Shown here: piece by piece, positions 28,179-64,000 of the stretch
Numbering within the stretch: the stretch's first letter is position 1
Layout: every line of letters begins with the position of its first letter
The notes under the pieces: generated by a model
Seen by the model: the letters and a program-made list of their open reading frames with translations, nothing else
The model's database searches: none
What the model was told of the DNA's origin: nothing
Source of the DNA: a phage
DNA: 64,000 nucleotides
Direction: 5' to 3' (one strand)
Sequence record: PZ386955.1
Translations under genes and position numbers: made by a program

Positions 28179-29339
28179 TTAGTAAGAACGACCACCAAAC
28201 ACATACTCTGTGTAGTTTTTACGTTCTTTGTTTTTAATAACAACTTCAATGTTGTTGCCTTTATCATCGGTGAACACAAAGTGATAACCGTCACCACCCA
28301 TTGTACGGATGTGTTTTTCATCATACGTCAGCAAGATACGGTCTACACCCCAGTAGTAGTCACCTTCTTCATCTTTATCTTCTACGGTAACGACTCCTTC
28401 CATTTCAGGAAGATGCTCTTCTCCTAGCTTATGGTCTACAGCTACAACATAACGATTACCGCTAAACAAACCCTGTGCTGTCATACCGTCAATATCGGTA
28501 TCTGCCGAAACATCTCCTGTACGGTCTACACCGTTGACTTTCAGAAGTTTAACTTCTTTTGCAGCATAGCGGTGTTCAGTAATACTGATACCCATTAATG
28601 CAAGTGCATCAGAGAATTTGTCATTAGGGTAACGGTTAAGTTCTTCTACTAAGGACTGAACAATATCAAAGTTCAAATCCACGGAAAGATTATAAAGCGT
28701 TTCAAAATCTGGTAAAAAGGCTTTGTTCTCCAGATTTTTAGCCAGATAGTCATCCATAGTAGCTTTAGGTAGTTTCTTATAGCTAAAGCTGTAGAAAATA
28801 CGGCTAGGACGATTACGCAAAAATTCTGATACATAACCATCATTTTTAGTCAATACAAACAGCTTGTCATAGCCACCAACACCATCCAGCAGGGTAAGCA
28901 AACCATCCTGTGCATCTTTTTCAGCATACAGTTTATCAAATTCATCGATCATAATCATCACAGGTTGTGTGATTTTAGACATAAAATTGATAAAGCCTTC
29001 ACCATTAAAAGCACTACCGATAGAAATAGTAGGAATACCCATTTCACGAAGAGCAGAAGACAGCATTTTAGCTTGCAAAGTTTTACCGCTACCCTTCGTA
29101 CCCTCAAGGAGAACACCTGTGTTTTTACCTTTGCGGCTAAGGAACGTCTTGATAATACGTTCTGATTTATCATCAGTATCACCGTATGTTACTGAAGGGA
29201 CTTCCATATCGTTTTTAGGATACAGGAAGAACTCACCACTTTGAGTAACACCTACACCAAAAGTTCCTGCTGGAATTTCTTCGATATCTGTACCAGACTT
29301 CTGACGCAGGAAGATTTGATTGCCGAATACTGTAAACAT
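28179..29339 (-). CDS. AAA+ ATPase, paralogue A
   Basis: Walker A GTKGSGKT, Walker B IMIDEFDK, LLTLLDG; N-terminal 250 aa paralogous to 43581-45191. Confidence 0.6.
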   Translation of the reverse strand: MFTVFGNQIFLRQKSGTDIEEIPAGTFGVGVTQSGEFFLYPKNDMEVPSVTYGDTDDKSERIIKTFLSRKGKNTGVLLEGTKGSGKTLQAKMLSSALREMGIPTISIGSAFNGEGFINFMSKITQPVMIMIDEFDKLYAEKDAQDGLLTLLDGVGGYDKLFVLTKNDGYVSEFLRNRPSRIFYSFSYKKLPKATMDDYLAKNLENKAFLPDFETLYNLSVDLNFDIVQSLVEELNRYPNDKFSDALALMGISITEHRYAAKEVKLLKVNGVDRTGDVSADTDIDGMTAQGLFSGNRYVVAVDHKLGEEHLPEMEGVVTVEDKDEEGDYYWGVDRILLTYDEKHIRTMGGDGYHFVFTDDKGNNIEVVIKNKERKNYTEYVFGGRSY

Positions 29340-43580: not shown

Positions 43581-45191
43581 ATGAAATACACGATTTATGG
43601 TGATATTGTAAGTGTAAATAAAGATATGGGCGTGGAATCTAACTATCTTCCACCTGGATTCTATACTGTTAGTCGTGATCCCCTTGGCAATTATTTTTTA
43701 AGCCGTGGTAATCTAACAGGTGTACCGGATGTTCTGTATGGTGAAACAGAAAAACGAGCAAATCACGTTATCCGTACATTCCATCGCCGGAGTGCACAAG
43801 GTAAAAATACAGGCTTGCTTCTGACAGGAACTAAGGGTAGTGGTAAAACTATGTTAGCCAAACTCATTAGTCGTGATCTTGTAGAAGAAGGTATTCCAAC
43901 TATTATGGTTACTCAAGCCTACAGTGATGCTAATTTCATTGAACTTATTAGCAAGATCACCGACAAAGCAGTGATTATTTTTGACGAGTTTGATAAAGTA
44001 TATGAGAAGAAACAAGATCAAGAAGCACTTCTCACTTTGTTAGATGGTACTGGCAGTGGTAATAAACTGTTTATTCTAACTAAAAACAGTGGCTTTATCT
44101 CTGAATTCTTTCTAAATCGTCCTAGTCGTGTGTTTTATAATTTTAATTATGATAAAATCTCACTAGAAACTATGATTGACTATTTAGATAAAAACCTGGA
44201 TAACAAAGCACACTTTGATAATTTCCAAAGACTTTGGGATGTAAGTTTAGAGTTGTCCTTTGATGTGATCCAAGGTATAGTAGAAGAACTTAATTTCTAC
44301 CCTGATTTATCCTTTAAAGAATGCATCTCTATGATGGGCGTTTCTTTGGGTGGTGGTAATAAATGGGATACTACAAGTATTAACAATTTTAAACGTGGTA
44401 GCGGTTGTCCACAATGTAAGAGGGAGAGACAAACAATGTCCGACGATCAACATATTGCAGATTTCTTTTCTACAGGGGAATTTAAGGAAGGCACTATCTT
44501 CACCAATACAGGGAAACGTAACAAGCGTGATGCAGTATGGATGGTTGAGTGTCCTGTTTGCTCCCATGATGAATATGTTCAAGCAGGTGTTTGTGATGGT
44601 AAATTTTACTCTGCAGGACATAACCTTAAACAAGGGTATATTCCGTGTCGTTGTGGGAACTATCAGTATACAGAAGACCAGATCACCTATAGGGTAAAAA
44701 AGGAAGTAGAAGGGAAAGGGTATGTCTGGGTAGATTGGATTACCAAACCCTCTTCTATAGGTAAGTTTAAATATCTTTGTCTTGTGCATGGTGAGCAGAT
44801 AGGGAGTGCTCGTAATTTATTAAGCCTCGGTCAAGGTTGTCCACAGTGTGCTGGTCATAATCAACAGCAATTATATATTAATATTGTTAAAGATAATGAT
44901 ATTATAGTTGCTCTTAAGTTTGGTATATCTAAAGATAGCGATAGACGATTAAACGGTCAAAATAGCCGTAATCTGTTTTTTATGGAGCGTATTTGTTTAT
45001 ATGATTTTAGCACAGTGAAACAATGTAGGGCTGCTGAAAGAGCTATAAAGAAAAAATTAAAAACTGGTATTTTAACGGCAAGAGAGTTGAAAGATGGTTA
45101 TACAGAAACAGTAAGTGTTTCTGATTTGGAAAATCTTCAAAAAATTATTACACAATATGGTGGCAAATTAGTATACAGTAAGGAGATGTAA
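43581..45191 (+). CDS. AAA+ ATPase fused to zinc-ribbon repeats and a C-terminal GIY-YIG/T5orf172-like domain, paralogue B
   Basis: Walker A GTKGSGKT, Walker B IIFDEFDK, LLTLLDG; then GCPQC, CPVCSHDE, CRCG, GCPQCAGH; C-terminus IVALKFGISKDSDRRL. Confidence 0.6.
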   Translation: MKYTIYGDIVSVNKDMGVESNYLPPGFYTVSRDPLGNYFLSRGNLTGVPDVLYGETEKRANHVIRTFHRRSAQGKNTGLLLTGTKGSGKTMLAKLISRDLVEEGIPTIMVTQAYSDANFIELISKITDKAVIIFDEFDKVYEKKQDQEALLTLLDGTGSGNKLFILTKNSGFISEFFLNRPSRVFYNFNYDKISLETMIDYLDKNLDNKAHFDNFQRLWDVSLELSFDVIQGIVEELNFYPDLSFKECISMMGVSLGGGNKWDTTSINNFKRGSGCPQCKRERQTMSDDQHIADFFSTGEFKEGTIFTNTGKRNKRDAVWMVECPVCSHDEYVQAGVCDGKFYSAGHNLKQGYIPCRCGNYQYTEDQITYRVKKEVEGKGYVWVDWITKPSSIGKFKYLCLVHGEQIGSARNLLSLGQGCPQCAGHNQQQLYINIVKDNDIIVALKFGISKDSDRRLNGQNSRNLFFMERICLYDFSTVKQCRAAERAIKKKLKTGILTARELKDGYTETVSVSDLENLQKIITQYGGKLVYSKEM

Positions 45192-46160: not shown

Positions 46161-46183
46161 TTCGTGTTTTTATAGGTGTGTGT

Positions 46184-46198
46184 ATGATAATCATTCTC
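46184..46198. promoter_or_regulatory. Fur-box-like palindrome within palindromic cluster
   Basis: ATGATAATCATTCTC vs Fur consensus ATGATAATCATTATC; followed by TCATTCTCAGTAAGAGAATGA and GAGAATTTTTCTC palindromes to 46250. Confidence 0.4.
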
Positions 46199-46477
46199 AG
46201 TAAGAGAATGAGAATCGTTAGCAAATGAGAATTTTTCTCATTTAGAGAATAACGCGCAGGGGTGGTGTTTGTCTCGCGCTCCCGTGTCCCCTCGCCATAC
46301 AATAAGAATAGCATAACCAACAACAAAAGCAAGCGATTATTTCTATCTTTACATTTCTTTACAAATTTATTTTAGACGAGCTACCGGCGATCAACCTTCC
46401 AACCAGTAGTGCCCTGGTATGTTAGCCCCGCCTTTACGCCGTGGGGGTGGCGCTTCCTCTTCTGTATGTAAAACAGT

Positions 46478-56021: not shown

Positions 56022-56035
56022 TACACGGCAAAAGA

Positions 56036-56062
56036 AAGGGGCGCACTAAGCGCCCTTTTTTG
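56036..56062 (+). terminator. rho-independent terminator
   Basis: Hairpin AAAGGGGCGC(ACTA)AGCGCCCTTTTTT. Confidence 0.75.
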
Positions 56063-57206: not shown

Positions 57207-57232
57207 AGGGCGCACAAAGCGCCCTTTCTTTT
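57207..57232 (+). terminator. rho-independent terminator
   Basis: Hairpin AGGGCGC(ACAA)AGCGCCCT + TTCTTTT. Confidence 0.7.
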
Positions 57233-57440
57233 ACCTCAATAAAGATGATAGCTTTTACCTATCAAAAACGTTCACCGAAAAAAGTGAATAGATCGCGGTA
57301 TCGAGCTAATCAAGGAGCAGATGAACAACCATACCATGAAGATCATAAGGCGCTTACAACGCGTTTTAGACCGCTTGTTTTTAATTTCTCCATGTAACTA
57401 TCTGGCAAAAACAGCCTTTTTCTTGTCTTTCCTCTTAAAT

Positions 57441-57456
57441 AATAATCATTCTCATT
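57441..57456. promoter_or_regulatory. Fur-box-like half-palindrome
   Basis: AATAATCATTCTCATT. Confidence 0.35.
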
Positions 57457-57492
57457 TGTAGCTGATTATTTATGCAATAAACTGAATAATGC

Positions 57493-57510
57493 AATAATGA
57501 TAATCATTCT
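57493..57510. promoter_or_regulatory. Fur-box-like palindrome
   Basis: AATAATGATAATCATTCT (16/19 to GATAATGATAATCATTATC). Confidence 0.45.
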
Positions 57511-58362
57511 TAACTTAAGACCATCTAACCTATAAAATAATAAGCTATCTAACTAAATTAAAGCTAATTATCTCACCTTTATTTATAACTTACTGTTACT
57601 ATCTCATTGATAACCTTATATTAAACAACAATAACTAATATAAATCATTACCAAGCTAAAGATAAGCTATCTAACCTTTAAAACTATAACTATAATCTAT
57701 CGAATTGTTGCACAAAGTAACTATTAAATTGTTAGTAACATTACTAAATAATTAATATCCTATCTATTTATGATCTAATCTTTACCTTCCTATCTATTAC
57801 CTAAATAATCATTTCATACAATAACTATAACAAGAAATATAATTCGCAAGCGTATCATTAGCAGCCTATGCCGGACACATAGGCGGCTAATAATAACGCA
57901 ACTACACACCCCACATAATAACCATCACCGATAGTTATTATTTGTGCTTATGTAGCTTGCAACAATTGCAAGCGCAACAATATACATGGTATATTGTATC
58001 CCTTACATTGTTGCGGTGCGTTATTATTAGCTAATGTTTAGAACATTGGCTATAATATAAGCTATCCAATAATAATAAGCTATACAATAATAAACATAGT
58101 GAATAATGACCCCCGATGATCATAATGCGCCACCTTCCAGGGGGCGCTATGTGAACACAAAGAAACCTTTCTTGTCAAGAAAAATATTGCCACTATTGCG
58201 CAAAATTATTTATATCTGAATAGATGATTTTTCATACTATTGCCCCCAATACTATCCCTATTTGTTGCCCTAACTATTGTCATTTGTTGAGCCTACTTTC
58301 TTAAAAGCGCAATAAATCAGAATTATCTTGATTTTTAGGGCGTTTTATAGTATAGAAAATAT

Positions 58363-58381
58363 GCAAATGATAATCATTATC
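58363..58381. promoter_or_regulatory. Fur-box-like palindrome
   Basis: GCAAATGATAATCATTATC: 16 contiguous identities to Fur consensus; just downstream of TTGATT...TATAGA promoter-like site. Confidence 0.5.
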
Positions 58382-58548
58382 AGCTATCTTCCACGGGTGG
58401 CACTATTTCACGCAGGATCATTTCATTTGGCAAGGTGTATATAGATGTTTAGACTTGCCAAGCCATTGATTTACTTAGAATTTATCTGTTTTGTTGTGAG
58501 TAGTACCTTTCTTGCTCAGAAAATAATCAAAAGTCTTATAAGTCATTG

Positions 58549-58579
58549 AATGATAATGCAAATGATAATTATTCTCATT
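58549..58579. promoter_or_regulatory. tandem Fur-box-like palindromes
   Basis: GAATGATAATGCAAATGATAATTATTCTCATT. Confidence 0.45.
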
Positions 58580-58950
58580 GATATTTGAGGGGGACGGTCG
58601 GCAGAAATCGGGGGGCGCTGAAAATCGCGTTAAGCACCTCTCGCAAGCGAGCAGTATTTTGCGGCAAGTTATTGATATTATTGACTTTACGCTTATGAAA
58701 AGGGGGTGTGTCGAAATAAATCGGGTATACCGGAAAAATTTTGTGGCATAGATATTTATTTGTCTATATTATGTACAAAGGGGTGTGTTAAAAATAATAG
58801 GTATATATAGAATAATTGATAGGGAATACCTATACTAATTCCTATACTAAATCCTTCATTAATGATGTTTCTATGGTGCTGTTCTTGTAATAGATGAAAA
58901 GACGCTGTATGATGTGTGGCATGAAACGTAAATTTATAAAGGAGTCTGAT

Positions 58951-59310
58951 ATGTGTGTTCCTATTAGCAGTCCACTGCTGTTAGAATTTTACAAAGCATG
59001 GATGGAAGATCATTCCTCAATGCATCGTGAGAATGTTGGTTTGTGTATTTGCCTTATGGATTATCTGGCAACCACTATGTCAAAGAAAAAACCTACGCAA
59101 GAAGATATAGAACATTTCAAGATGGTTCGCAGTAAAACGCTAGAAGAGATGAAATTGCAATTCACGTGTGCTGGGCTATCATCATTCCTGCCCTTTAATG
59201 ATGACCTTCTGTGTTATGAAGATGAAGGTAAGAAACATTCTTGCCATACTAACCCAGGGAGATTGCAGTGGGTGAAAGATCGTATTGCCGATTCATGTAA
59301 GGGTGTGTAG
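58951..59310 (+). CDS. Cys/His-rich small protein, paralogue family member 1
   Basis: Start at ATG 58951 (AAGGAG SD); blocks LL.FYKAW, GLC.CL.DY, QFTCAGL, PFN.D, CHTN, RLQWVKDRI shared with three other ORFs. Confidence 0.5.
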   Translation: MCVPISSPLLLEFYKAWMEDHSSMHRENVGLCICLMDYLATTMSKKKPTQEDIEHFKMVRSKTLEEMKLQFTCAGLSSFLPFNDDLLCYEDEGKKHSCHTNPGRLQWVKDRIADSCKGV

Positions 59311-59311
59311 A

Positions 59312-59467
59312 ATGTGGGAATTGGTTGGAATAGTTTGGTTAATGATAAAAGCAGGTTTTGTCGGTTTCGGACTTCTTATAATTTTGTGTATGTTCCTTAG
59401 TGCAATACAGGCATTCTTTTATCTGCTAGGTAGAATACTTAAGTTAGGAGGTGATCATGAAAAGTAA
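59312..59467 (+). CDS. small membrane protein
   Basis: 51 aa hydrophobic. Confidence 0.35.
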   Translation: MWELVGIVWLMIKAGFVGFGLLIILCMFLSAIQAFFYLLGRILKLGGDHEK

Positions 59468-59825
59468 TATTCCGTTGAGTAGTGCAGCTTTAATACGATT
59501 CTATAAAGCATGGATTGCCAACCATCCGGCAATGAATCGCACAACGAGTGGCTTGTGTGGTTGTCTGGTAGATTATGTAGATGATTTTGTTGGTGAGGTA
59601 ACTAGAGAAGAAGATAAAAGATGGCGTGATCGTTTGTTGGATAGTTTGAAATACGAAATGAGGAAACAATTTACATGTGCAGGACTGGACTACAATCTTC
59701 CGTTCAATGCAGATTGCATGGATTACCTTTCAGAGTGTATAGACTTGGCGTGTCATACCAACACGTTACGTCTTCAATGGGTGAAAGACAGAATCGAAGA
59801 TGCAAATAATGCTTGCATTGAATAG
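59457..59825 (+). CDS. Cys/His-rich small protein, paralogue family member 2
   Basis: AGGAGG SD 5 nt before ATG 59457; LIRFYKAW...GLCGCLVDY...QFTCAGL...CHTNTLRLQWVKDRIED. Confidence 0.5.
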   Translation: MKSNIPLSSAALIRFYKAWIANHPAMNRTTSGLCGCLVDYVDDFVGEVTREEDKRWRDRLLDSLKYEMRKQFTCAGLDYNLPFNADCMDYLSECIDLACHTNTLRLQWVKDRIEDANNACIE

Positions 59826-59895
59826 AAATGTCTGTACACTGTGTTCCATAAGATATGCAATATCGCGCATAACAAACTACTAATGAGAGGTGTAA

Positions 59896-60354
59896 ATGAA
59901 AACTGTATCTTTGTATCTTGCTAACACGGAGCGTGTACATAATCTTGTAAAAGAATGCGGTGTGAGTGTTCAATTTAACATAGGAAAGCCTTCCGTGGTG
60001 ACAGGCAGTGAGATGTGTGTTATTGATTTCCTCAATGAATATTTTCGTGGAAAACCTATTGCTCGTCACTTCATTCAAGAAATGCGAGATGTACTACAGG
60101 CTTATGAATTCTACCCAGAAATTTGTGAACGCTATGAAACTATTCTTAGTTCTGTAGAAGATCCAGATACTAGTGAAACAGGTGTTTCCCACTTACTGTG
60201 GATGTTGAATGAAATTCAGGATGGGTGTAATGGTATGTCTGAAACCAAACGCCATCGTTGGCTAGGCTATATTCAGGGTGTTATGGTTATGAAAAACCTT
60301 ATTACCGTTGATGATGAACGTAATGCTACACGCCCCGTCTTTAATGGAGCATAA
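59896..60354 (+). CDS. hypothetical protein
   Basis: GAGAGGTG SD. Confidence 0.5.
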   Translation: MKTVSLYLANTERVHNLVKECGVSVQFNIGKPSVVTGSEMCVIDFLNEYFRGKPIARHFIQEMRDVLQAYEFYPEICERYETILSSVEDPDTSETGVSHLLWMLNEIQDGCNGMSETKRHRWLGYIQGVMVMKNLITVDDERNATRPVFNGA

Positions 60355-60355
60355 C

Positions 60356-60571
60356 ATGAAAAGCATTCAGGTGTGTATTGAAAATAATTGTGGTTATCTG
60401 GGGTTGACACATGTTGCTTTCCCTCTTATGTTAGATGCTGATATCGCTTACAGCGGAGTTGCTTATGTGTCATTCAAGACAATGAGCCAAGTACCTGGCT
60501 GGAAGTGGGAAGTAGTTGATGTTGTTGAAGGAGAAGATTATGTTTTCCTTCCACACGAATATACTGTTTAA
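60356..60571 (+). CDS. hypothetical protein
   Basis: Start at ATG 60356 (GGAG SD). Confidence 0.45.
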   Translation: MKSIQVCIENNCGYLGLTHVAFPLMLDADIAYSGVAYVSFKTMSQVPGWKWEVVDVVEGEDYVFLPHEYTV

Positions 60572-60586
60572 AGAGAGGAAAAGAAG

Positions 60587-60763
60587 ATGGATAAACAAAC
60601 TACTGTGTACTTAGTAACAAAGAATACCCCAGGCTGGAGCCAATGCAGCACTGTACCTTACAAGATCTGTGCAACATTAGAACTAGCACAACGCGCAGAA
60701 GCAGAAGTGGATGCCATGCAATACAGCTATGGTGAAATCATTCCTTTTACTCTTGAACAATAA
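60587..60763 (+). CDS. hypothetical small protein
   Basis: 58 aa; AGAGAGGAAAAG SD; below ORF-track cut-off. Confidence 0.4.
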   Translation: MDKQTTVYLVTKNTPGWSQCSTVPYKICATLELAQRAEAEVDAMQYSYGEIIPFTLEQ

Positions 60764-60774
60764 GGATTTGTGTA

Positions 60775-61227
60775 ATGTTTGAAATTGGTAAAGTGTATCG
60801 TTTTAAAAACCCATCTTATATCCGTAAGTTTGCTAACATGTCTGAGTGCAATAGCAGGATTGCTTCTTTTTTAGGTGATTCCTATTTTCGTGTATTAGAT
60901 GTGGATGATTGGTATGGTGTCACTGCTTTGCAATCCTTAGCAGGAGAACAAGAAATTATCGCTCAAAATGAAGGAGACTTTCTTCAGTGTTACACGTTGC
61001 TTGCAAAAAGTGAGTTTGAGTATTTTGTAGAAGTCTTAGAGGAAGCACCAAAAAGTAAACACGAAGAGAAATACCTGCTTGTAGTGGATGGAGTTCCGAT
61101 CATGGAAACCATCTCCCGTGAGGAAGTTGAAAAAGAGGCGAAACGTTACAAGCTGGATCGTACACAGAGTGTAGTTGAAGTCTATTCTCTTGTTGGTGTT
61201 GCAGATATTAGTGTGAACATCGTATAA
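60775..61227 (+). CDS. hypothetical protein
   Basis: AAGGA SD. Confidence 0.5.
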   Translation: MFEIGKVYRFKNPSYIRKFANMSECNSRIASFLGDSYFRVLDVDDWYGVTALQSLAGEQEIIAQNEGDFLQCYTLLAKSEFEYFVEVLEEAPKSKHEEKYLLVVDGVPIMETISREEVEKEAKRYKLDRTQSVVEVYSLVGVADISVNIV

Positions 61228-61230
61228 TAT

Positions 61231-61443
61231 ATGTGTAATGACAGATACATTCTTCGTGTATCTGATAAGTCTCCTATGTTTGACTGGCGGGGCTGGTGGC
61301 TACTAGCTCCGATGCAAGGTCTGACAGACGTGGAAAAGGAGGCTTATGTGTATACAAAAGAAGAGATAGAAGATAGCCTTTATTTGACAGATAACATTAA
61401 GAATGGTATCTTTGAGTGTAAATTGAAAGGAGAGGAAGAATGA
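61231..61443 (+). CDS. hypothetical protein
   Basis: 70-aa ORF, weak SD. Confidence 0.4.
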   Translation: MCNDRYILRVSDKSPMFDWRGWWLLAPMQGLTDVEKEAYVYTKEEIEDSLYLTDNIKNGIFECKLKGEEE

Positions 61444-61739
61444 CTATTACAGAAAAACTGCGCTGTATTGCAAAGCAAAGTGGAGAAGGTTTATGGTTTC
61501 CTATTGAGGAAATTATTCAGGACTGTTATGATCAGGCTAAGACTGGCAAATACTCCAAAGCATTTAAACCATCTGTTTTCGGTTTGGATGACTATCCAAA
61601 AAATGAACAAGCAAAGAAACGACAAGTTGATTTGATTGATCTTGCTATGGAAGCACTACGAGAGCATGGGCTTAGTAAGGTGTATGCTTTAAACACCAAA
61701 GAGGGCTTTGTAGATTCAGTGATCGTAGACTGGTATTAA
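61440..61739 (+). CDS. hypothetical protein
   Basis: AAAGGAGAGGAAGA SD; start overlaps upstream stop. Confidence 0.5.
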   Translation: MTITEKLRCIAKQSGEGLWFPIEEIIQDCYDQAKTGKYSKAFKPSVFGLDDYPKNEQAKKRQVDLIDLAMEALREHGLSKVYALNTKEGFVDSVIVDWY

Positions 61740-61748
61740 GGAGAAGTC

Positions 61749-62117
61749 ATGCAAGAGAATAATAAAGTGTGTAACATGAAAAGCAGCCCCTATTTGCTAC
61801 AATTTTATGAATGGTGGTTAGAACAAGAAGATACAAACTTTAGCAAAAAGCACTATGGTCTTTGCACGTGTCTTGTAGACTTCTTATACAATATTGCTTG
61901 GATAAAAGATGTTGAGAATCTAGCAAACCTTCAGTCCTCTGTACGAGAGGAAATGAAGGAACAATTTAAGAAAGCGGGTTTGAACCATTTACATCCGTTT
62001 AATACGGATTTCTCGCACTACTTTACGGAAACAGAGCTAGGCATTGCACACCTTAACAAAGAACGTGTACAATGGGTGATTGATCGTATTCGTGATATGG
62101 AGGAATATAATGGTTAA
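61749..62117 (+). CDS. Cys/His-rich small protein, paralogue family member 3
   Basis: LLQFYEWW...GLCTCLVDF...QFKKAGL...HPFNTD...RVQWVIDRIRD. Confidence 0.5.
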   Translation: MQENNKVCNMKSSPYLLQFYEWWLEQEDTNFSKKHYGLCTCLVDFLYNIAWIKDVENLANLQSSVREEMKEQFKKAGLNHLHPFNTDFSHYFTETELGIAHLNKERVQWVIDRIRDMEEYNG

Positions 62118-62319
62118 GTTTAAAACTTTCTGTGCAATCTCTGTTTGTCTTATTCTTGCATACGTGTTATTCTCTGGTATCATTCGTTTAGGTGAGTATA
62201 TGGCAAGAGAAGCTCGTGAAAGTGAAGCTAAAAAAGAACAGTGCATCGTGTTAAAGCACCAAAGGGATGCTGAAAAATTTCTTGAACAGGATTGTGGGCG
62301 CTATGTGAATTATAATTAG
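62110..62319 (+). CDS. small membrane protein
   Basis: GGAGGA SD; N-terminal hydrophobic helix. Confidence 0.4.
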   Translation: MVKFKTFCAISVCLILAYVLFSGIIRLGEYMAREARESEAKKEQCIVLKHQRDAEKFLEQDCGRYVNYN

Positions 62320-62328
62320 GAGGGAAGT

Positions 62329-62577
62329 ATGTTAGATATTTTTACCTTTGATCGTGTTGGTACACCGATTACCGAAGAAGAACGTACCAAAATTGAACAA
62401 GAATTGGATGCTTTACGTGCGTCTCTTACAGACACAGTCTCACTACAACGTGAAGCTGCACATCTCACAGAGATCACTGGTATTCAGTGGAGCACGGAGT
62501 GGGTTGTAATTACAATTGAAGCGGATATTTGGGGACATGAAGAGACGCTACGTACCGGAGTAGTAACGGTTTGGTGA
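62329..62577 (+). CDS. hypothetical protein
   Basis: AGGAGGGAAG SD. Confidence 0.45.
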   Translation: MLDIFTFDRVGTPITEEERTKIEQELDALRASLTDTVSLQREAAHLTEITGIQWSTEWVVITIEADIWGHEETLRTGVVTVW

Positions 62578-62623
62578 TAGATGTTATTCTTTTGTGTTTC
62601 TTGATATATAAATAGGAGGGTTT

Positions 62624-62848
62624 ATGGTAAAACGTCTGGAATGGGATGCGTGTACTGCTCACGCTTGTCACTGTGATATTGTTGAAGATCCTAATGGAGA
62701 GATGGTGTATTATGAGGATTACGAAGCATTGCACAATGCTGTGATTGCTTTACTGGATGATATTAGCTCACGCTATCCAGGACAACAATTCACGTGTCCA
62801 CATATCCAACTATTAGCCGAACTTACGGAGTATCCAAGTGTTCCATAA
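62624..62848 (+). CDS. hypothetical protein
   Basis: AGGAGGG SD. Confidence 0.45.
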   Translation: MVKRLEWDACTAHACHCDIVEDPNGEMVYYEDYEALHNAVIALLDDISSRYPGQQFTCPHIQLLAELTEYPSVP

Positions 62849-62849
62849 T

Positions 62850-63017
62850 ATGGGTGTCCCTGAACAACTGCTCTTTATTGTAGGATTAGTAGGCTTATTG
62901 GCGGCTGGCGCTAAAGCCGCTTCTCACACGCATCACATAATGTTAAGATTTCTATTCCTACTCCCTTCTATCCTCGTACTATTAGTCATACTGATCGATA
63001 ACATTTTTCACAATTAA
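62850..63017 (+). CDS. small membrane protein
   Basis: 55 aa, two hydrophobic segments; below ORF-track cut-off. Confidence 0.35.
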   Translation: MGVPEQLLFIVGLVGLLAAGAKAASHTHHIMLRFLFLLPSILVLLVILIDNIFHN

Positions 63018-63026
63018 GGAGAGGTT

Positions 63027-63611
63027 ATGAGTAAAATTATACCAAGCAGTTATGAATTATTACAGTTTTATGTATATTATATAGACTGGGTTAGTAGATT
63101 GAATGTTAAAGACAATGCGATGTTTAGTAAAAACATCTGTTTAACAGAAAGTATCTTCCGTTACTGGCACACAGGTAGAAAGTGTACACACAGTGAAGCT
63201 ATGCGCATTGTAGGAGAATATCTGGAGCAATTGCAAAAAGCAGAACTTCCTGTCCTTCACCCATTCAACGAATCTAAAGAAGAATTAGAACAAGAATGTA
63301 GGGAAGGTAAGTGCCATTTGAATGAAAAACGTATCGAATGGGTGAGGCAACGTTTAGCCGATGCAGGGAATCCTCCTAGTGACTCTGACTATACGTGGTA
63401 TGATGTAGAGGGTTTAGTTCAAGGTTTTGAGGCTTGTGCTATAGGTAATACCAACTTTGCCAAAGTTTTATGCGAGGTTTATGATCTGGCAGATAAAATC
63501 CGAAATCACGGATGGAAACAAGAGCATAAAGAATCATATGAACGCCTTGACAAGATTTTCAAACAGATCTATTCTAACCACAAAGAGATGTTCCAAATGG
63601 AGGATGTGTAA
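63027..63611 (+). CDS. Cys/His-rich protein, paralogue family member 4 (extended C-terminus)
   Basis: LLQFYVYY...ICLTE...LPVLHPFNES...CHLNEKRIEWVRQRLAD; AAGGAGAGG SD. Confidence 0.5.
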   Translation: MSKIIPSSYELLQFYVYYIDWVSRLNVKDNAMFSKNICLTESIFRYWHTGRKCTHSEAMRIVGEYLEQLQKAELPVLHPFNESKEELEQECREGKCHLNEKRIEWVRQRLADAGNPPSDSDYTWYDVEGLVQGFEACAIGNTNFAKVLCEVYDLADKIRNHGWKQEHKESYERLDKIFKQIYSNHKEMFQMEDV

Positions 63612-64000
63612 TGAAAGAGATTATGTTTGAAGGGCATCGTTACGAAGTTCCAGACAATGCAAATTTCATGGCTCGTGATATCACTGGAGATGTGTTCTGG
63701 TTTGAAGATGAACCTGTGTTTTCTTCGAACAAACACTGGTTTTCACAACAATCTTCCTCGGAAAATATGACTTTTGGCTACGTAGAGCCTAAAGTGCGCT
63801 GCAAAGCAGCTTCTTCTTTGGTAAAAATTTCCCAAGATGATCAAGAAAATACTCCAGATGTTGTTAGTGCACTACTGAAGTACATTGCAGAACTTGAGAA
63901 GAAAATTAAAGAAGCAGAAACTAAGGTGAAAGCACGATCAGCCATCATTGAAGCTATGTCTGAACGTATCTTAGAGCTAGAAGATTTGTGTGGAGAGGCT
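63610..64000 (+). CDS. hypothetical protein (3' end beyond window)
   Basis: ATG overlaps upstream stop; frame open to window end. Confidence 0.4.

Follow-up and report, generated by a model that had tools for sequence, protein, structure and literature searches.

The window analysed here is a stretch of 64,000 nucleotides of phage DNA (sequence record PZ386955.1), and near its end four small genes, here called A, B, C and D, are encoded on the plus strand (Table 1). These genes are four functional, anciently diverged copies of a phage-restricted, all-alpha domain of about 105 residues, which corresponds to PHROG 2510 and its relatives. Purifying selection acts on all four, which are genuine coding genes. 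An earlier note, made from the letters of this DNA, had described four open reading frames (ORFs) as a family of small proteins rich in cysteine and histidine, and all four are present as described there.

The part of the window from 58800 to 63700 was used as megablast query and 122 phage records were matched, the best of them being the Justusliebigvirus (phi92-like, Stephanstirmvirinae) coliphages Eryne, Nernie and Paula at 97-98% identity. Judged by this similarity, which is about 98% between the window and Eryne, the window comes from a Justusliebigvirus (Stephanstirmvirinae) phage of E. coli. The four genes lie at the distal end of a plus-strand cluster of small genes, whose transcription diverges from that of the replication genes.

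Homology of the four copies

The similarity among the copies was tested against chance and lies far beyond it. By BLASTP, A and B are 45.6% identical (E 3.5e-33), A and C 40% (E 2.4e-26), B and C 36.7% (E 1.6e-20) and C and D 29.8% across 114 amino acids (E 3.2e-11), while the pairs A-D and B-D give E values of 1.1e-8 and 3.3e-9. All four show a significant match to the profile of phrog_2510 across the whole domain, with nothing different in kind from that family, and D also matches phrog_27059 end to end (1-194 of 194 residues, E 1.6e-137). A hidden Markov model (HMM) of the four copies, run against the 1005 six-frame ORFs of the window, recovered A-D alone (E <= 3.5e-51; next E = 1.1), and no fifth copy was found by this search. 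The start of A at 58951 is preceded, at 7 nt, by the Shine-Dalgarno sequence AAGGAG and is the same as in the Eryne annotation; the upstream ATG at 58894 is a less likely alternative.

The ordered blocks which had been reported as shared by the four proteins are accurate in A, B and C, save that C has 'AHLN' where the other copies have 'CH.N'. They do not hold for D, which is the outlier: it is without the GLC.CL.D block, its cysteine being shifted by two residues (position 41 with MAFFT, position 37 in the HMM alignment; numbering here and below follows copy C), and has QL..AEL in place of QF..AGL. The core which is kept in A-D consists of the S13-L16-F19-Y20 helix, E68/Q72, the PFN loop, E94, H101-x-N103 and R106-x-x-W109-V110, and E68, Q72, PFN, E94, H101, N103, R106 and W109 are retained by all four. 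The copies diverge in the segments between these positions.

Table 1. Positions of the family genes and of other features in the window
Feature	Position	Strand	Remarks
Paralogue A	58951..59310	plus	119 aa, single family domain; phrog_2510 E 3.8e-21
Paralogue B	59457..59825	plus	122 aa; phrog_2510 E 4.1e-24
Paralogue C	61749..62117	plus	122 aa; phi92 gp006 orthologue (PATM annotation); phrog_2510 E 1.6e-25
Paralogue D	63027..63611	plus	194 aa; phi92 gp010 orthologue; phrog_2510 E 3.1e-17
Family domain of D (divergent)	63033-63371	plus	residues ~3-115
C-terminal extension of D	63375-63608	plus	78 residues
Promoter-like module	58327..58385	plus	TTGATT, 17 nt, TATAGA, then Fur-box-like palindrome; upstream of A
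Fur-box-like palindrome	58363-58381		2 mismatches to GATAATGATAATCATTATC
Second module	58545..58600	plus	TTGAAT, then Fur-box-like element; ~375 nt upstream of A
Fur-box-like element	58558-58576		4 mismatches to consensus
Fur-box-like site	57493-57511		3 mismatches
Weaker Fur-box-like site	57438-57457		
Predicted membrane ORF, non-family	59285..59467	plus	60 aa; between A and B; hydropathy maximum 2.49
Further small predicted membrane ORFs	62080-62319, 62838-63017		abutting family copies
Tail-fibre genes	0-4.8 kb		
Replication and nucleotide-metabolism genes	5-42 kb	minus	DNA polymerase, primase-helicase, NrdD, helicase
Small-gene cluster	42-64 kb	plus	~56 genes

Conserved residues

Conservation was analyzed in a set of 122 diverse members of the family. 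C39, P83, F84 and R106 are invariant in this set, and S13, L16, F19, Y20, G37, L38, E68, Q72, F73, L78, W109 and V110 are conserved in at least 90% of it. H101 is found in 79% and C100 in 56% of sequences, one or both of the two being present in 117 of the 122, and the second cysteine of the 'CxC' (Cys41) occurs in 15-22%. In a larger set of 257 domains, 236 have cysteine at position 39; of the 21 which do not, 17 are orthologues of D. Within the window, C is without C100 and D is without C39.

The metal binding which had been suggested from the cysteine and histidine positions does not survive as a multi-ligand site, there being one near-invariant cysteine and losses of C39 or C100 even in the window. 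The three or four Cys/His ligands at fixed spacing of a classical zinc domain (finger, ribbon or knuckle) were not found. With C100, H101 and Cys41 missing from many members of the family, and C39 or C100 from copies in the window itself, a conserved multi-ligand zinc site is not present.

Co-variation was analyzed by mean-field direct-coupling analysis of 237 sequences (about 181 effective, a low depth), in which the top long-range pairs are N85-E94, E94-N103, E94-C100, S13-E68 and K34-H101. The presence of C100 is associated with that of E94 (odds ratio 9.3, p = 6e-6). The coupled pairs suggest a single cluster of the conserved polar residues, close to the loop preceding C39. In the AlphaFold2 (AF2) models of A and C, C39 is predicted as the second residue of helix 3, and the second residue of a helix is a position typical of reactive cysteines.

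Predicted structure and searches for a known function

The AF2 model of A has a mean predicted local distance difference test (pLDDT) score of 88.0 and a predicted template modelling (pTM) score of 0.82, with five helices, and that of C, which was built from the 122-sequence alignment, has a pLDDT of 87.9 and a pTM of 0.82. In the predicted fold, five main helices are packed as a bundle and residues 76-87 form a long loop. No relative of the domain was detected among solved structures by fold search or by sequence-profile search of the PDB, the latter giving nothing with either the 4-sequence or the 122-sequence alignment. The fold matches in BFVD are members of the same family from Pectobacterium, Rhizobium, Burkholderia, Achromobacter, Klebsiella, Delftia and Pseudomonas phages. 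No resemblance of the fold to a known metal-binding domain was found.

Scans of A-D with Pfam, NCBIfam and PADLOC gave chance-level matches only (the best being ATG11 at E 0.041 and Crl at E 0.042), none scoring above a curated cut-off, and the copies were assigned to no Pfam or NCBIfam family. The known anti-defence proteins with solved structures showed no sequence or fold similarity to the family. The helix N-terminal CxxC and matching fold of the all-alpha thiol oxidoreductases (Erv/ALR, AhpD/CMD-like) were not found. HEPN ribonucleases, which are four-helix bundles with an R-x(4-6)-H motif, were considered and rejected: a histidine follows R106 at position 113 in 33 of 122 sequences (arginine in 80), and HEPN structures are absent from the fold matches of the family.

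PHROG 2510 is a catalogue entry for which no function, structure or publication was found, and a literature search returned no published characterisation of phrog_2510, of an anti-defence role in Stephanstirmvirinae or of the copies in BASEL phages Bas60-62. Ksap2 (Bas60_220), the trigger of KpAvs2 in a related phage, is described as weakly terminase-ATPase-like and mostly confined to its subfamily (PMC11564622). It appears different from the present family, being set apart by that description and by a locus tag about 64 genes beyond the D orthologue bas60_0156.

Distribution of the family

A full HMMER scan of 1.84 billion representatives (clusters at 50% identity) gave 725 proteins at a cut-off of E <= 1e-3, of which 134 reach E <= 1e-10; one of the matches (P0014) is a repetitive false positive. 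The majority are single domains of 95-130 residues. By tblastn the domain was found in 181-227 phage records at 474-573 places, and tblastn and BFVD together give Escherichia, Salmonella, Klebsiella, Erwinia, Pectobacterium, Achromobacter, Burkholderia, Delftia, Pseudomonas and Rhizobium as hosts, so that the family spans phages of alpha-, beta- and gamma-proteobacteria. PHROGs 6418 and 27059 are families related to PHROG 2510. The annotation is 'hypothetical protein' throughout, including the cluster look-ups of the 725 representatives, and a word-indexed homologue search returned very few proteins and none with a name.

Tandem fusions of two domains make up 9 of 248 proteins. In about 12 matches the domain is one module of lambdoid-prophage proteins of 250-400 residues, where it stands between Ala/Pro-rich linkers. 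These proteins belong to the nin region, between the lambda-P-like replication gene and RusA, and one of them is encoded between a lambda-P-like gene and DUF1367/YbcO/RusA. In contrast to them, the window copies are stand-alone domains, to which D adds an unrelated C-terminal extension. Two further proteins (P0100 and P0148) have the domain fused to DUF551 (PF04448). The partner modules, too, are without an assigned function, and the fusions therefore reveal no activity.

The domain is almost absent from bacterial genomes, two scans of which gave a single copy, in a prophage of a Roseococcus metagenome-assembled genome beside a tail-fibre-like gene. This copy came from a scan of 185,579 species genomes with a degenerate motif pattern, which would catch only about a quarter of family members. 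For the prophage gene at locus L003, complete E. coli genomes gave no match.

Genomic position, selection and recombination

The genomic niche agrees with the earlier reading: in every lineage examined, the domain is found in small-gene clusters at or near the genome end. In the N4-like Achromobacter phage Axy10 the gene comes after the terminal repeat and before the RNA polymerase genes, three domains are encoded within the first 1.5 kb of the T7-like Rhizobium phage RHph_N37, and the siphovirus IME207 has the domain in an end-of-genome cluster of small genes. Three tandem copies are present near the genome end of PTXU04, five in the first 15.7 kb of phAPEC8 and nine within a 40-kb stretch of phiWec179. 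Family genes are frequently adjacent in tandem. The left ends of T7 and N4 are early, host-directed regions, and clusters of small genes at genome ends, like small early families in many copies, are the usual home of host-takeover and anti-defence genes.

In RHph_N37 and Axy10 the family occupies the same niche as the T7 class I genes (Ocr/gp0.3) and the N4 left-end early genes, and it resembles these in being small, acidic, dispensable within the genus and variable in copy number. Neither in sequence nor in fold was it found to resemble Ocr or any other early protein of solved structure. The proteins are mildly acidic (median isoelectric point (pI) 5.2, net charge -4) and, unlike Ocr, not at the charge of a DNA mimic; this argues against DNA binding and Ocr-type DNA mimicry.

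The ratio of nonsynonymous to synonymous substitution (dN/dS) was obtained by the pooled Nei-Gojobori method between orthologues from eight congeneric phages, phAPEC8 and phiWec179. The values are gene-wide, and all pairs take the window as reference and are thus not independent. They are 0.15 for A, 0.20 for B, 0.08 for C and 0.12 for D, in the same range as those of eleven neighbouring genes (0.04-0.41). The diversifying selection which had been proposed leaves no gene-wide sign at pooled values of 0.08-0.20, and the proteins are constrained.

The same proposal of an expanding family is borne out in the form of rapid birth, death and transfer. Copy number is 2-4 within the genus and 5-9 in related genera, and A and B are both absent from three of the eight congeneric phages (phiWec187, PD06 and ESCO9), two of which, PD06 and ESCO9, keep a short 3' remnant of B. 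Phage J-01 carries a single A/B chimera (412-777 of its locus) in place of 58951-59825 of the window. The chimera is A-like up to the coding block of the shared RLQWVKDRI and B-like after it, the membrane ORF and most of B being deleted, and as its two halves read it is direct evidence of recombination between tandem paralogues. B is the most widely shared copy, with 97% nucleotide identity to a gene of phiWec179 and 93% to phAPEC8_0019. The genes flanking it are absent from these phages or reach about 70% identity, and the contrast points to an exchange of B between genera. Taken together, the compared genomes indicate that copy number changes by unequal recombination of tandem copies and by exchange between genera.

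Upstream region of the first copy

The stretch directly upstream of A (57230-58890; 1.66 kb) is ORF-poor and AT-rich, and it holds two promoter-like modules with Fur-box-like elements (Table 1). The E. coli 19-bp consensus GATAATGATAATCATTATC was taken as the Fur-box reference. In 1000 dinucleotide shuffles of the stretch, 0.004 sites were expected at <= 3 mismatches and 0.05 at <= 4; with two to three observed, such sites are strongly enriched. The sequences of both modules are conserved in ORF-free gaps upstream of the first copies in phiWec179 (about 19621) and phAPEC8 (about 6665), and they are unlike the promoter motifs annotated elsewhere in phAPEC8. The modules at 58327..58385 and 58545..58600 are putative regulatory elements. 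No publication on Fur boxes in Justusliebigvirus-like phages was found.

A second Fur-box-like array of hexamer repeats, TGATAATCATTCTC / GAGAATGAGAATCGTT / AATGAGAATTTTTCTCATT, was noted at 46180-46250 in another ORF-poor stretch (about 45.9-47.2 kb). A pair of terminator-like hairpins of nearly the same sequence, GGGCGCAC(T/A)AAGCGCCC with a T-run after it, is located at 56033-56061 and 57207-57225, where the two bracket a three-gene unit just before the ORF-poor region. Rfam gave nothing in 55.5-64 kb of the window.

Interpretation

The best explanation, to which we assign a probability of about 0.4, is that the domain is a non-essential early accessory module which acts as a homo- or heterodimer through stoichiometric binding to a conserved component of the host or of a defence system. 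The near-invariant N-terminal cysteine of helix 3 and the co-varying N85/E94/C100-H101/N103 cluster would make up a pocket for binding or reaction that the copies share. Each paralogue would owe a specificity of its own to the variable segments between the blocks, and with several copies a wider range of targets would be covered. An accessory binder is the best fit because the family is restricted to phages, positioned in small-gene clusters, dispensable within the genus, multiplied in tandem and incorporated into multi-module prophage proteins, and because its core is conserved and its inter-helix segments are variable. Dimers are implied by the tandem fusions of domain to domain and by the frequent tandem adjacency of the genes. 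AsiA and Acb2, small helical phage inhibitors or sponges of solved structure, are of the same size class (about 90-120 residues), all-alpha, phage-restricted and likely oligomeric. A part in host takeover or counter-defence is a reasonable candidate.

Several points weigh against the accessory binder. No experiment, homologue of known function or fold match favours any particular activity, and early expression in the Justusliebigvirus phage of the window is read from genome position. The coupling signal is shallow (about 181 effective sequences) and the spatial clustering of Cys39 with H101 is indirect. It could be that the conserved polar residues have a structural role only, as a buried network, and strong conservation of polar positions in phages whose hosts range over alpha-, beta- and gamma-proteobacteria is a feature more of enzymes or small-molecule binders than of protein-protein inhibitors.

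The main rival, which we consider possible though doubtful, takes up this last point and makes the domain a thiol-dependent enzyme or a small-molecule binder or sponge. In this view the helix 3 dipole and H101/E94/N103 would activate Cys39, whose target or ligand would be a conserved metabolite or signalling molecule, with a different substrate for each paralogue. A near-invariant cysteine in the first turn of a helix, the co-variation of the polar cluster and the conservation of E68, Q72, E94, H101, N103 and R106 in at least 77% of sequences across phages of distant hosts all agree with such a role, as does the state of the tandem fusions, about half of which retain E68/Q72 in one domain and have lost them in the other. 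The rival is weakened by the fact that a considerable minority of the family is without H101, C100 or C39.

It is unlikely that a metal or Fe-S cluster is held at a dimer interface by Cys39 and Cys100/His101 of each subunit, under Fur-controlled promoters which would link the early programme to host iron status. The presence of Cys100 and/or His101 in 117 of 122 sequences is what an interchangeable ligand position would give, the tandem fusions imply the dimers which it needs, and the Fur-box-like elements enriched upstream of the first copy stand in promoter-like modules conserved in three genera. However, each subunit has two candidate ligands and neither is universal in the window (Cys39 is missing from D and Cys100 from C), known metalloproteins show no similarity to the family, the helix topology does not obviously join Cys39 and Cys100/His101, and the Fur-box evidence comes from Stephanstirmvirinae, the N4-like, T7-like and Rhizobium phage members lying outside the comparison. 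A broader form of this idea is a little less probable still: a new fold in which a helix-capping cysteine and an interchangeable Cys/His position would keep a metal, Fe-S cluster or thiol-reactive ligand in place at the dimer interface, with the lead copies transcribed from promoters under the host repressor Fur. If this is true, part of the early programme of Stephanstirmvirinae phages would be adjusted to the iron status of the infected cell.

Far less credible is a transcription factor or DNA-binding regulator of the early programme, or a minor structural protein. The proteins are small and helical and are encoded in a regulatory genome region, and one relative is annotated 'putative transcription factor' somewhere in the stretch (EmilieFrey), but their acidity (median pI 5.2, net charge -4) and the failure to detect a helix-turn-helix or other DNA-binding fold disagree with a regulator, and variable copy number with dispensability within the genus suits neither a core regulator nor a virion protein. 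Finally, the reading that the resemblance is chance or low complexity, or that the ORFs are not genes, is refuted by BLASTP E-values to 3e-33, PHROG matches, 725 homologues, dN/dS well below 1 and confident AF2 models, and is hardly worth entertaining.

Value of the family for further study

The finding is a well-delimited family rather than a surprise: a large, phage-specific domain family whose fold could not be assigned. It is tractable, with 725 clusters at 50% identity, a confidently predicted fold unlike solved structures, a conserved site to mutate (Cys39, His101, E68/Q72 and R106) and natural copy-number variants in cultured phages, including the related BASEL phages Bas60 and Bas62. 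An assigned function would annotate hundreds of 'hypothetical' genes at once, the lambdoid prophage modules included.

Neighbouring genes and other observations

The small genes between the copies had been called unrelated to the family, and they do fall in other PHROGs without assigned function. Every copy in the window adjoins a small predicted membrane ORF, in the gene orders F-T-F, F-T and T-F, where F is a family copy and T a membrane ORF. Among the compared relatives, the ORF at 59285..59467 is found in Eryne and AMO3598 only, and in a metagenomic protein (P0004) a similar membrane ORF is fused in frame to a B-like copy. Functional coupling to membrane ORFs as a general feature was dropped, as the adjacency holds for 1 of 8 copies in phiWec179.

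PHROG scans of the neighbours and of the multi-domain relatives gave families of unknown function, save for weak hints in two neighbours. A 74-residue Cys-rich protein at 62624-62848 has a weak match to a Lar-like restriction-alleviation PHROG (E 7.7e-4), and a 150-residue protein at 60775-61227 has a weak match to a GoF-like PHROG (E 9e-7), its Eryne orthologue being annotated goF.

Elsewhere in the window, two paralogous ATPase genes (28182-29339 on the minus strand and 43581-45188 on the plus strand) each match phrog_2376, the latter being fused to an endonuclease domain (phrog_681). Four GenBank records (MG065645, MG065689, MG065639 and MG065656) carry the label 'Campylobacter phage' and the host C. 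jejuni. Their identity to the Justusliebigvirus region is about 97%, which suggests that they are mislabelled or contaminant genomes.

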